A stretch of DNA of 64,000 bases from Escherichia coli (GTDB lineage: Bacteria > Pseudomonadota > Gammaproteobacteria > Enterobacterales > Enterobacteriaceae), in the NCBI RefSeq assembly GCF_044647545.1, contig NZ_CP172818.1, one strand, 5' to 3'. This document shows, in pieces, positions 13,597 through 16,032 of the stretch (the first letter of the stretch is position 1; the number at the start of each line of letters is the position of its first letter). The notes under the pieces were generated by a model. That model searched no databases. It was not told the origin of the DNA and saw only the letters and a list, made by a program, of their open reading frames with translations. The position numbers were made by a program, and so were the translations under genes.

Positions 13597-14085
13597 ATGT
13601 TGGATGTATTTACTCCATTGTTGAAACTTTTTGCTAACGAGCCACTCGAAAGACTTATGTATACGATTATCATTTTTGGTCTCACTCTCTGGCTGATACC
13701 GAAAGAGTTTACTGTCGCATTCAATGCTTATACTGAAATACCTTGGCTCTTTCAGATTATCGTTTTTGCCTTTTCTTTCGTGGTCGCCATTTCCTTCTCA
13801 AGATTGCGAGCACATATTCAAAAGCATTATTCATTACTACCAGAGCAACGAGTATTGCTTCGTTTATCTGAGAAAGAAATCGCTGTATTTAAAGATTTCC
13901 TTAAAACAGGAAATCTTATTATCACTTCTCCTTGCCGTAACCCGGTTATGAAAAAATTAGAACGGAAGGGCATCATTCAACATCAGAGTGATAGCGCAAA
14001 CTGTTCTTATTATCTCGTCACCGAAAAATACTCCCATTTTATGAAGTTATTCTGGAACAGCAGGAGTAGACGTTTTAATCGTTAG
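13597..14085 (+). CDS. sieB: Superinfection exclusion protein SieB
   Basis: 162-aa membrane protein from internal ATG (MLDVFTPLLK...) of ORF 13474..14085. Confidence 0.85.
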   Translation: MLDVFTPLLKLFANEPLERLMYTIIIFGLTLWLIPKEFTVAFNAYTEIPWLFQIIVFAFSFVVAISFSRLRAHIQKHYSLLPEQRVLLRLSEKEIAVFKDFLKTGNLIITSPCRNPVMKKLERKGIIQHQSDSANCSYYLVTEKYSHFMKLFWNSRSRRFNR

Positions 14086-14237
14086 CTTACTGTGTGCTTC
14101 TCCAACCATCGGCGCGCACCAGTTTCGGTTTTAAATGTTTTGCTTTTGGTATACGTCATGGCAGTGAACGTTCCATCCTGGTTGGGGAACACGCCGCACA
14201 CCAGGGATTCGTTGTTGCCGAGGTCGATTTTTTGCAT
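14082..14237 (-). CDS. ydaF: Small prophage protein (51 aa)
   Basis: Hand translation MQKIDLGNNESLVCGVFPNQDGTFTAMTYTKSKTFKTETGARRWLEKHTVS; stop overlaps sieB stop convergently. Confidence 0.55.
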   Translation of the reverse strand: MQKIDLGNNESLVCGVFPNQDGTFTAMTYTKSKTFKTETGARRWLEKHTVS

Positions 14238-14247
14238 TTTGCGAATC

Positions 14248-14382
14248 TCACATCTTGTTGCTACGTATAGCGACTTCTGCCTGCCAGAGATCCCAGTCGT
14301 TGCTGCGTAAAGCCTGCACAGCCTGGTTGTAAGTGATACCGCAACAATCCATCAAATACTGAACTACTTCGTAATGCACCAT
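14248..14382 (-). CDS. ydaG: Small prophage protein (44 aa)
   Basis: Hand translation MVHYEVVQYLMDCCGITYNQAVQALRSNDWDLWQAEVAIRSNKM. Confidence 0.55.
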   Translation of the reverse strand: MVHYEVVQYLMDCCGITYNQAVQALRSNDWDLWQAEVAIRSNKM

Positions 14383-14572
14383 CTTATCTCTCCCCTTAAC
14401 GCCGGGTGGCGGAACTAACTGCTGCACTGCAAAATTTGAATCCCGCCGTCATGTTCATACGCCTCGGGCTGGCTACTTAACCCCTTACCACTGCCTGGTA
14501 ACTCGAAGTATTGCCCGGCGTTCTGTGGGGCGGGGTGGGTGGTATGCTGGAACTATAGGTAATGCCTAATTG

Positions 14573-14596
14573 ATTGTCAATAGGCTATGCCTAATG
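14573..14596. promoter_or_regulatory. Operator-like 24-bp element distal to racR, inverted copy of 15219..15242
   Basis: attgtcaataggctatgcctaatg; 23/24 identical to reverse complement of 15219..15242; surrounded by extra GCCTAAT motifs. Confidence 0.4.
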
Positions 14597-14690
14597 TTTT
14601 GAGCGTAACCTAATAGGTGATGGCGACAGCAGAAAGTGATGGGGGGGTTAAATAACGGAATCCAGGAGTTTTCCGTCAGACCATATAAGT

Positions 14691-15167
14691 TTAAGTTCCA
14701 GTTTTTGTGATGTTCTGGCTTTTCCGTTCAGATTCAAGAGCTTTCAGATACTTACCCACTTTCATTTCCATCGCTGCTATGTAGGCGCGAACATCGTGGT
14801 CAACCCAATCTGGTTCTGTAGCATTTCCAGATAACAGGAAAGCTACAATCGCTCTTATTTCATCAGAGGCTGCTTGATAAAGGTTGTTTATATCTAAAAG
14901 TTCACTTTTTGTATCTGAATTGGTGGGGGTTGGTATGGGGTATTCGTTAAGCCCCCAATGCTCTGGACCAACAACATCAGAAAAGAAACGCCATAATTCT
15001 GGAAGTTTATCTTTACTTATAGAGCCTTTCTTAATCCAGTCATAAATTGATGGTGGTTGGACTTTAAAGTGGCGTGCGACCTCCGCCTTTGATTTGACGG
15101 ATCCCGATGCGATTTTTTTGTTAATGGCCTGCTCTATCGCTCGGCCTAAGTCTTTACCACTAAGCAT
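14691..15167 (-). CDS. racR: Prophage repressor RacR (CI-like)
   Basis: 158-aa ORF with N-terminal HTH-like region; divergent from ydaS. Confidence 0.9.
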   Translation of the reverse strand: MLSGKDLGRAIEQAINKKIASGSVKSKAEVARHFKVQPPSIYDWIKKGSISKDKLPELWRFFSDVVGPEHWGLNEYPIPTPTNSDTKSELLDINNLYQAASDEIRAIVAFLLSGNATEPDWVDHDVRAYIAAMEMKVGKYLKALESERKSQNITKTGT

Positions 15168-15218
15168 TGCTTAATATTCTCCTATGCGCATTACATTAGG
15201 CAATCCCTACCCTTACTG

Positions 15219-15242
15219 CATTAGGCACAGCCTATTGACAAT
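15219..15242. promoter_or_regulatory. Operator-like element in racR-ydaS divergent promoter region
   Basis: cattaggcacagcctattgacaat plus nearby palindrome ttaggcgtcgcctaa (15247..15261). Confidence 0.45.
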
Positions 15243-15290
15243 TGCGTTAGGCGTCGCCTAATATTTCTGTGTGTTTTTGGAGTTCATTCG

Positions 15291-15587
15291 ATGAAAAAAG
15301 AGAACTATTCATTCAAGCAAGCTTGTGCTGTTGTCGGTGGGCAATCAGCAATGGCTAGGCTTTTAGGTGTATCACCTCCAAGCGTAAATCAATGGATCAA
15401 AGGGGTACGTCAATTGCCTGCCGAGAGATGTCCAGCAATTGAACGTGCAACAAGAGGTGAGGTTCTGTGCGAAGAACTTCGTCCTGATATTGACTGGTCA
15501 TATTTACGACGTTCGGCATGTTGTTCGCAGAATATGTCAGTGAAGCAACTAAATGACAGTAACAAATCCTCATTTGATCATACCTGA
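15291..15587 (+). CDS. ydaS: Cro-like HTH protein YdaS
   Basis: 98 aa; HTH (QACAVVGGQSAMARLLGVSPPSVNQW). Confidence 0.88.
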   Translation: MKKENYSFKQACAVVGGQSAMARLLGVSPPSVNQWIKGVRQLPAERCPAIERATRGEVLCEELRPDIDWSYLRRSACCSQNMSVKQLNDSNKSSFDHT

Positions 15588-15609
15588 AACATCAAGAGGC
15601 AAATGATTC

Positions 15610-16032
15610 ATGAAAATCAAGCATGAGCACATCGAATCAGTGTTGTTTGCCCTAGCAGCCGAAAAAGGGCAGGCATGGGTAGCCAATGCAATTACTGAAG
15701 AATATCTGCGCCAGGGGGGCGGCGAATTGCCCCTGGTTCCAGGCAAGGACTGGAACAATCAGCAGAATATCTATCACCGTTGGTTGAAAGGTGAAACGAA
15801 AACGCAAAGAGAAAAAATTCAGAAGCTGATCCCAGCAATTCTGGCAATCCTTCCGCGCGAGCTGCGTCACCGACTCTGCATCTTCGATACCCTGGAACGC
15901 CGTGCATTACTGGCGGCGCAGGAAGCGTTAAGTACGGCAATTGATGCGCATGATGATGCAGTCCAAGCCGTTTACCGGAAAGCGCATTTCAGCGGCGGCG
16001 GTTCTTCCGACGATTCTGTCATTGTTCATTAA
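15610..16032 (+). CDS. ydaT: Rac prophage protein YdaT
   Basis: 140-aa ORF immediately downstream of ydaS. Confidence 0.88.
   Translation: MKIKHEHIESVLFALAAEKGQAWVANAITEEYLRQGGGELPLVPGKDWNNQQNIYHRWLKGETKTQREKIQKLIPAILAILPRELRHRLCIFDTLERRALLAAQEALSTAIDAHDDAVQAVYRKAHFSGGGSSDDSVIVH

Follow-up and report, generated by a model that had tools for sequence, protein, structure and literature searches.

A candidate pL/OL promoter-operator unit facing away from racR in the immunity region of the Escherichia coli Rac prophage

The racR locus and its flanking inverted repeat

The stretch of DNA analysed here (64,000 nucleotides, hereafter the window) carries the Rac prophage of E. coli K-12, and its positions 14200-15700 are 100% identical to K-12 derivatives. 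The Rac repressor gene racR (158 aa) occupies 14691..15167 on the minus strand. To its right, on the plus strand, lie ydaS (15291..15587), a cro-like gene that is the first of the rightward operon and matches the transcriptional repressors of PHROG 35 (E = 1e-27), and ydaT (15610-16032). To its left, on the minus strand, are ydaG (14248..14382, 44 aa), which is the first annotated gene downstream of the candidate promoter pL described below, and ydaF (14082-14237), with kilR, racC and recE further leftward. The assignments of racR and ydaS made in an earlier, sequence-only reading of this DNA were correct. Pfam matches of RacR were limited to weak HTH hits (HTH_17 the best, E = 0.005), and an S24 peptidase domain was not among them; the protein acts in the manner of CI without belonging to the CI/LexA-type (S24) family. 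Both ydaG and ydaF fall into PHROGs of unknown function, and neither an N gene nor a nut system was recognised downstream of pL. An Rfam search with 14000-15700, covering both strands and allowing E values up to 1, returned no match.

Directly after the racR stop codon, the centroid fold contains an 8-bp hairpin followed by UAUUUAA (14653..14678, minus strand), a candidate weak terminator or 3′-end element of racR. In our set of 42 distinct E. coli-type haplotypes, this hairpin shows one compensatory change, A-U to G-C at 14672/14659, in 6 haplotypes. Since its fold z-score is not significant, being no better than that of shuffled sequences, and the compensatory pair is a single one, we dropped the firm reading as the racR terminator and keep the hairpin as a candidate. 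Approximately 25 nt immediately after the racR stop (CTTAnnCTnnTnTGGTCnnAnGnnAA; 14670-14695, minus strand) are kept even in Mixta, Morganella and Proteus, and this conserved stretch overlaps the 5′ arm of the hairpin.

The sequence-only reading had described a 24-bp inverted repeat bracketing racR, and direct alignment bears this out: 14573-14596 (ATTGTCAATAGGCTATGCCTAATG) is identical to the reverse complement of 15219-15242 at 23 of 24 positions. A repeat search lengthens the pair to 35 nt at 83% identity (14573-14607 and 15208-15242, with 600 nt separating the arms), and once a 1-nt indel is allowed the arms align over about 50 nt, taking in a second operator and a -10 hexamer. This is the sole 24-mer inverted repeat with at most one mismatch within the 64-kb window. 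The analytic chance expectation for such a 24-mer pair is 5e-4 per window and 2.5e-5 within 1.5 kb, and none of 200 block shuffles yielded one.

Several inverted repeats in the racR-ydaS intergenic region are protected by RacR, with the consensus (T/A)TAGGC-n3-GCCTA(T/A) (PMC9638921), and RacR binding at these right-hand operators has been documented by EMSA, DNase I footprinting and ChIP (PMC9638921, PMC5700373). Matches to TTAGGCNNNGCCTAA with at most two mismatches occur five times in the 64 kb, at 14555-14569, 14580-14594, 15196-15210, 15221-15235 and 15247-15261. All five lie in the two arms, which confirms the half-site clusters of the earlier reading. Only these clustered sites with at most two mismatches are informative as operator matches: the consensus is not enriched window-wide when three mismatches are allowed, and neither is the heptamer GCCTAAT (6 found versus 6.7 expected), five of its six copies in the window falling inside the two patches.

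The right arm corresponds to the ydaS promoter already published, together with its footprinted RacR operators. PydaST, the equivalent of pR (TTGACA-18-TAATAT; 15235..15264, plus strand), was recovered by a promoter scan with the same hexamers and spacing as found by experiment (PMC11879457). OR1 (15247..15261) matches the consensus, overlaps the PydaST -10 and is located on the ydaST promoter (PMC9638921); the sequence-only reading had noticed this palindrome but understated it as near-perfect, the half-sites TTAGGC gtc GCCTAA being perfectly symmetric. OR2 (15221..15235), a consensus match that forms the core of the right repeat arm, adjoins the PydaST -35 (PMC9638921). Nearer to racR are a further consensus match, TTAGGCAATCCCTAC (15196..15210), within the footprinted intergenic region, and a published operator with a TAAGCATTGCTTA core, recovered by motif search, over the racR start codon (15160..15174) (both PMC9638921). 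The E. coli lineages (K-12, O157) thus have four right-hand sites versus three in Mixta, Morganella and Proteus (L006, L007, L008), and the extra unit is the operator unit of about 26 bp at 15196-15210.

The left arm and its conservation

The two arms carry the same parts in the same order, namely operator 2, a TTGACA -35, operator 1 and a -10, and their promoters point outward. On the right the parts read ATTAGGCacaGCCTA / TTGACA / attgcg / TTAGGCgtcGCCTAATAT, and on the left, on the minus strand, ATTAGGCataGCCTA / TTGACA / atcaa / TTAGGCattACCTATAGT. In each arm one operator adjoins the -35 and the other overlaps the -10, with a centre-to-centre spacing of 25 bp between OL1 and OL2 and 26 bp between OR1 and OR2. 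The promoter scan finds exactly two strong sites, both outward-facing and one per arm. The sequence-only reading had overlooked both this near-consensus outward sigma-70 promoter in each arm and the second operator and -10 beyond the 1-nt indel.

The left-arm promoter, TTGACA-17-TATAGT (minus strand, 14580-14552), matches the consensus at 11 of 12 positions and faces leftward, to ydaG, ydaF and kilR. Its candidate -35 (TTGACA, 14575..14580) adjoins OL2, and its candidate -10 (TATAGT, 14552..14557), which varies in one of six columns across the 42 haplotypes, overlaps the outer half-site of OL1. OL2 (ATAGGCTATGCCTAA, 14580..14594), the core of the left repeat arm, is a candidate RacR operator with one mismatch, and OL1 (ATAGGTAATGCCTAA, 14555..14569) is a second with two mismatches to TTAGGCnnnGCCTAA and few variable columns. 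A third operator, OL3 (TTGAGCGTAACCTAA, 14599..14613), is weak and doubtful, with three mismatches at 19 bp from OL2. We consider it highly likely, from this arrangement and its conservation, that the left arm represents the pL/OL of the Rac lambdoid immunity region, not described before. The G7 homopolymer noted by the sequence-only reading is present nearby (14641..14647) but is probably irrelevant: it seems neutral because the run measures 6, 7 or 8 nt among otherwise near-identical loci and is interrupted or absent in the O157 type. A change in its length moves the distance from the racR stop to OL by about 1 nt.

The sequence-only reading had suggested looking for paired sites in homologous prophages, and they are present in O157, Mixta, Morganella and Proteus. 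The RacR locus of O157:H7 has about 87% DNA identity and the same two promoters and paired operators, the left hexamer pair TTGACA/TATAGT being identical. In Mixta, Morganella and Proteus, where the RacR homologs share 57-62% protein identity, ATTAGGC-n3-GCCTAAT sites occur on both flanks, and each of the three carries a ATTAGGCnnAGCCTATTGAC...ATTAGGnnTnnCCTAATAT block downstream of the repressor stop codon. Beyond the first ~30 nt that follow the racR stop, O2-TTGAC-O1 is the only non-coding block without variation across these lineages. The five-lineage alignment shows no change in TTGAC, and a counterpart of OL1 sits at the same position in O157, Mixta, Morganella and Proteus.

Variation among the 42 haplotypes follows the same pattern. 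OL1, OL2 and the -10 together have 5 variable columns out of 33, as against 98 of 246 in the flanking non-coding DNA (Fisher p = 0.006), and the two variable columns of OL2 both fall in its central 3-nt spacer. What speaks against the pL/OL reading is that OL1 has two mismatches and that OL3 is poorly conserved: 8 of its 15 columns vary among the haplotypes, and no matching site was found at its position in Mixta, Morganella and Proteus. A contig scan recovered only three usefully diverged RacR homologs, all with the same operator sequence, and co-variation of repressor and operator is seen between unrelated immunity types only.

Other records also carry this immunity type. Two contigs, L004 and L005, with RacR 100% and 92% identical, respectively, belong to metagenome-assembled genomes labelled Candidatus Nanosynbacter and Lachnospiraceae, and are almost certainly mis-binned E. 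coli prophage contigs. The 55.7-kb record of phage vB_EcoS-683R6 (L092) contains the distal OL/pL and the leader that follows it (98.4% identity) as well as a repressor gene of the Rac type, and the Rac immunity type therefore appears to be in use among recoverable phages. The annotation there names YdaS ‘repressor protein cI’ and YdaT ‘activator protein cII’.

As to the literature, no RacR binding at 14555-14594 is reported in the Rac papers searched, and a search for a start site or RNA polymerase at the distal promoter found none near 14545. The same papers make no mention of a distal site downstream of racR, of ydaG in such a context or of looping. The RacR regulon, ‘ydaFG operon’ included, has been called uncharacterised (PMC11014345). 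In the literature searched there appears to be no prior description of a Rac left operator, and the left copy thus appears to be new for Rac.

Exchange of the immunity cassette and the shared leader

Comparison of K-12 with a heteroimmune relative (L003) places both arms within a single exchangeable unit. Homology between the two stops at 14540 and restarts at 15604, just before ydaT, and these breaks delimit a cassette (14541..15603) that comprises pL/OL, racR, OR/pR and ydaS. The left breakpoint lies approximately at the predicted start site of pL, and many genomes agree on its location, with breakpoints at query positions 343-347. Between the breakpoints L003 has a different repressor and a different cro-like gene, along with a motif of its own, GTACTnnnAGTAC, in exactly four copies, two per flank and 24 bp apart. 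A third version is found in phage Evi, where GTTTAGTGTTT repeats occur on both flanks and a 24-nt inverted repeat, its arms 988 nt apart, is made up by the outward TTGACT...TAAACT promoters. Inheritance and exchange therefore involve the operators, the repressor and the cro-like gene together, as one cassette.

The left junction recurs well beyond these examples. Among viral contigs that share the leader, at least a dozen unrelated promoter-operator cassettes are joined to it, each with a TTGAC-type -35 at an equal distance, and the Rac left arm is one of these leader-joined cassettes. The paired operators around racR proposed by the sequence-only reading are thus strongly supported by conservation, by co-inheritance within the cassette and by the published RacR consensus. 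Its emphasis on a mere distal site was misplaced, however: what it took for a copy lying simply beyond the racR 3′ end is a whole promoter-operator unit, the candidate pL/OL, directed away from racR.

Two observations concern the wider family. Loci L093-L212, in which cassettes with their own dyad motifs meet one leader at one junction, amount to a catalogue of heteroimmune pL/OL modules. The HK022 pL operators, GTACT...AAGTAC (L213, 4810-4880), are of the same motif type as those of L003 (1857-1893 and 2417-2453), and the L003 repressor gene is much shorter than HK022 cI.

The shared leader itself is a separate mosaic module of about 156 nt (14391..14546, minus strand) downstream of candidate pL. 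Very C-rich at its 5′ end (CAUACCACCCACCCCGCCCCACAGAACGCC), it hardly varies over its first ~95 nt among 85 unique variants. Matches to the leader turn up in thousands of E. coli genomes, with no feature annotated there (the query has a match of some kind in 3797 of 5426 genomes, for most of them confined to the leader), and it is found in functional phages, including Evi and Tritos. The z-score of its predicted fold is a mere -1.9, and the first 95 nt are too invariant for covariation to be assessed. We rejected the leader as an antitermination RNA of the HK022 put type, since the two sequences, compared by reading, show no evident likeness between it and the HK022 pL-nun interval or putL. 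It may serve Rho as an entry site or represent a cis-acting RNA so far unrecognised.

The leader also has coding features. A conserved GAGG-N9-AUG opens an unannotated 18-codon ORF in K-12 (MTAGFKFCSAAVSSATRR; 14396-14452, minus strand), and in many phages a YdaF-like (DUF1391) protein of 76-78 aa is read in frame from this AUG. One variant of the ORF, MTAGTLCITAQQVFSS... versus MTAGFNFNNYAAGFCS..., resembles a compensated frameshift, as if the open frame may matter more than the peptide sequence.

Repression, looping and other roles of the left arm

Rac is part of the standard laboratory E. coli, and its repressor is essential because it keeps toxic genes silent, ydaS/ydaT to the right and kilR to the left. 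Since the distal unit faces away from racR and into the leftward early genes, its main job is most likely the direct repression of candidate pL. As a near-consensus sigma-70 promoter, pL would transcribe the leader and then ydaG and ydaF and, further on, kilR, racC and recE. RacR dimers bound cooperatively to OL1 and OL2 would exclude RNA polymerase from pL, as at OR1/OR2. Binding of RacR at OL is predicted from sequence identity and conservation, and pL is likewise a predicted promoter, within an architecture that is conserved and co-inherited with its repressor. In all likelihood, RacR at OL1/OL2 occludes pL, and by blocking polymerase at OL as well as at OR one repressor would silence both early operons.

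Upon lowered RacR expression, RNA-seq shows ydaF, ydaG, ydaE and racC up by about 40-fold and kilR, ydaC and ralA by more than 70-fold (PMC6765115). Part of this leftward derepression could be read-through from racR promoters, as RNA-seq cannot separate pL transcription from read-through. Silencing of kilR has been ascribed to Rho-dependent termination of transcripts from the racR promoter (PMC4150792).

The distal copy might instead be no promoter at all and act only as an auxiliary operator, looping to the racR-ydaS region to strengthen repression or autoregulation there; the sequence-only reading leaned this way. Lambda CI uses OL in this manner. RacR, for its part, has been reported as an octamer (PMC11014345). 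However, the promoter within the distal arm agrees with the consensus at 11/12 positions and keeps its hexamers from genus to genus, and the dozen or more heteroimmune cassettes joined to the common transcribed leader all put their -35 at one distance from it. Furthermore, the genes immediately downstream are those strongly derepressed when RacR falls (PMC6765115), and the counterpart in prophage CP-933P is an active, repressible promoter (PMC8630535). We regard a purely auxiliary operator as improbable.

Slightly less probable again is that the distal sites, instead of being a promoter's operator, work mainly as a protein roadblock or terminator that keeps racR transcripts out of ydaG and kilR. 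The sites do lie directly in the path of racR transcription, with just the weak hairpin at 14653-14678 and no strong intrinsic terminator after racR, and Rho-dependent termination of racR-promoter transcripts reportedly protects cells from kilR (PMC4150792). Such a function leaves the conserved outward hexamers and the mirror symmetry with pR unexplained. Stopping racR read-through on top of acting as pL/OL, though not in its place, is possible and compatible with the main reading.

It is very improbable that the arms are terminal inverted repeats bounding a DNA segment that can move or invert, be it a transposon-like cassette or a phase-variation switch with racR as the part that flips, even though they bracket a single gene and the left mosaic breakpoint is just outside the left arm. 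All 212 arms in the collected loci (104 + 108) are in the canonical orientation, with none inverted, and the right breakpoint (15604) falls about 360 bp past the right arm, after ydaS; on these two grounds the reading was rejected. In addition, there is no recombinase inside, conservation is limited to operator half-sites and promoter hexamers and does not extend to the arm ends, and unrelated cassettes share the layout with different motifs. Chance similarity without function, expressing nothing beyond the AT-rich character of promoter regions, has a negligible probability and is already refuted by the 5e-4 pairs expected per window, the 0 of 200 shuffles and the conservation across genera.

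With the left arm read as pL/OL, the question of a DNA loop arises in addition. In lambda, the CI octamer loops OL to OR. RacR is reported from size-exclusion chromatography to be an octamer as well, which the authors assigned to four sites within the intergenic region (PMC11014345). By analogy, a RacR octamer may bridge OL1-OL2 and OR1-OR2 and loop out the ~640 bp that contain racR alone. This is plausible because RacR is reported to be octameric and lambda CI loops in this manner, and we put it forward tentatively, judging it somewhat less probable than not. In three lineages OL2 and OR2 are 641, 591 and 629 bp apart, with no conserved helical phase. Such a loop would be unusually tight and would sharpen repression and the autoregulation of racR, as in lambda. 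If it forms, racR transcription would run inside the loop and exit through repressor-bound OL, and the loop would link three processes, namely shutting off the two early promoters, autoregulating racR and preventing read-through into the lethal kilR operon. The octamer would then be reinterpreted, and published discrepancies between in vivo results and those obtained in vitro with templates that lack the distal site would be explained.

The Rac layout is an ordinary textbook lambdoid OL/pL, and no general principle is changed by it. With the lambda immunity region it shares a repressor gene between two outward early promoters, operators that are tandem dyads of a single sequence family with neighbours spaced by about 2.4 helical turns, a cro-like gene as the first on the right, an octameric repressor (reported for RacR) and a cassette swapped whole between heteroimmune phages. 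It differs in that OL and OR are ~640 bp apart with racR alone between them, as opposed to ~2.3 kb with rexAB in lambda. The Rac E. coli lineages have four right-hand sites and a weak third left operator. No N gene or nutL was recognised in Rac, but this feature is not universal among lambdoid phages. Unlike CI, RacR is without the S24 self-cleavage domain, and the two proteins have unrelated C-terminal domains (PMC11014345). Lambda Cro represses cI, whereas YdaS reportedly does not repress racR in this way (PMC9638921).

The closest precedent is CP-933P of E. coli O157:H7, where a search for a lambda-like OL found PL933P and OL1-3, with hexamers identical to those of the right promoter, and where PL933P is shut down ~100-fold by PaaR2 and YdaS (PMC8630535). 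CP-933P is a sister lambdoid prophage that likewise has a ydaS-ydaT module and an octameric repressor (PMC8630535). It differs from Rac in its repressor, PaaR2, and operator sequences, in the toxin-antitoxin pair in the repressor operon and in the greater distance between its operator sets. HK022, P22 and 434-type phages also have compact cassettes, in which OL and OR directly flank the repressor gene. In these, however, the repressors are of the self-cleaving CI/LexA type, and HK022 has putL downstream of pL.

While unsurprising to phage biologists, the left unit should be useful for work on RacR, kilR and Rho-dependent silencing. It is a DNA element missing from the reporter and in vitro templates used so far, and recent RacR work used the racR-ydaS intergenic region only (PMC11014345). 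It would supply a mechanism that directly accounts for the 40-70-fold rise of the leftward genes, and it offers a lambda-like reading of the RacR octamer. Finally, it suggests that kilR may be silenced by repression of pL together with Rho-dependent termination.
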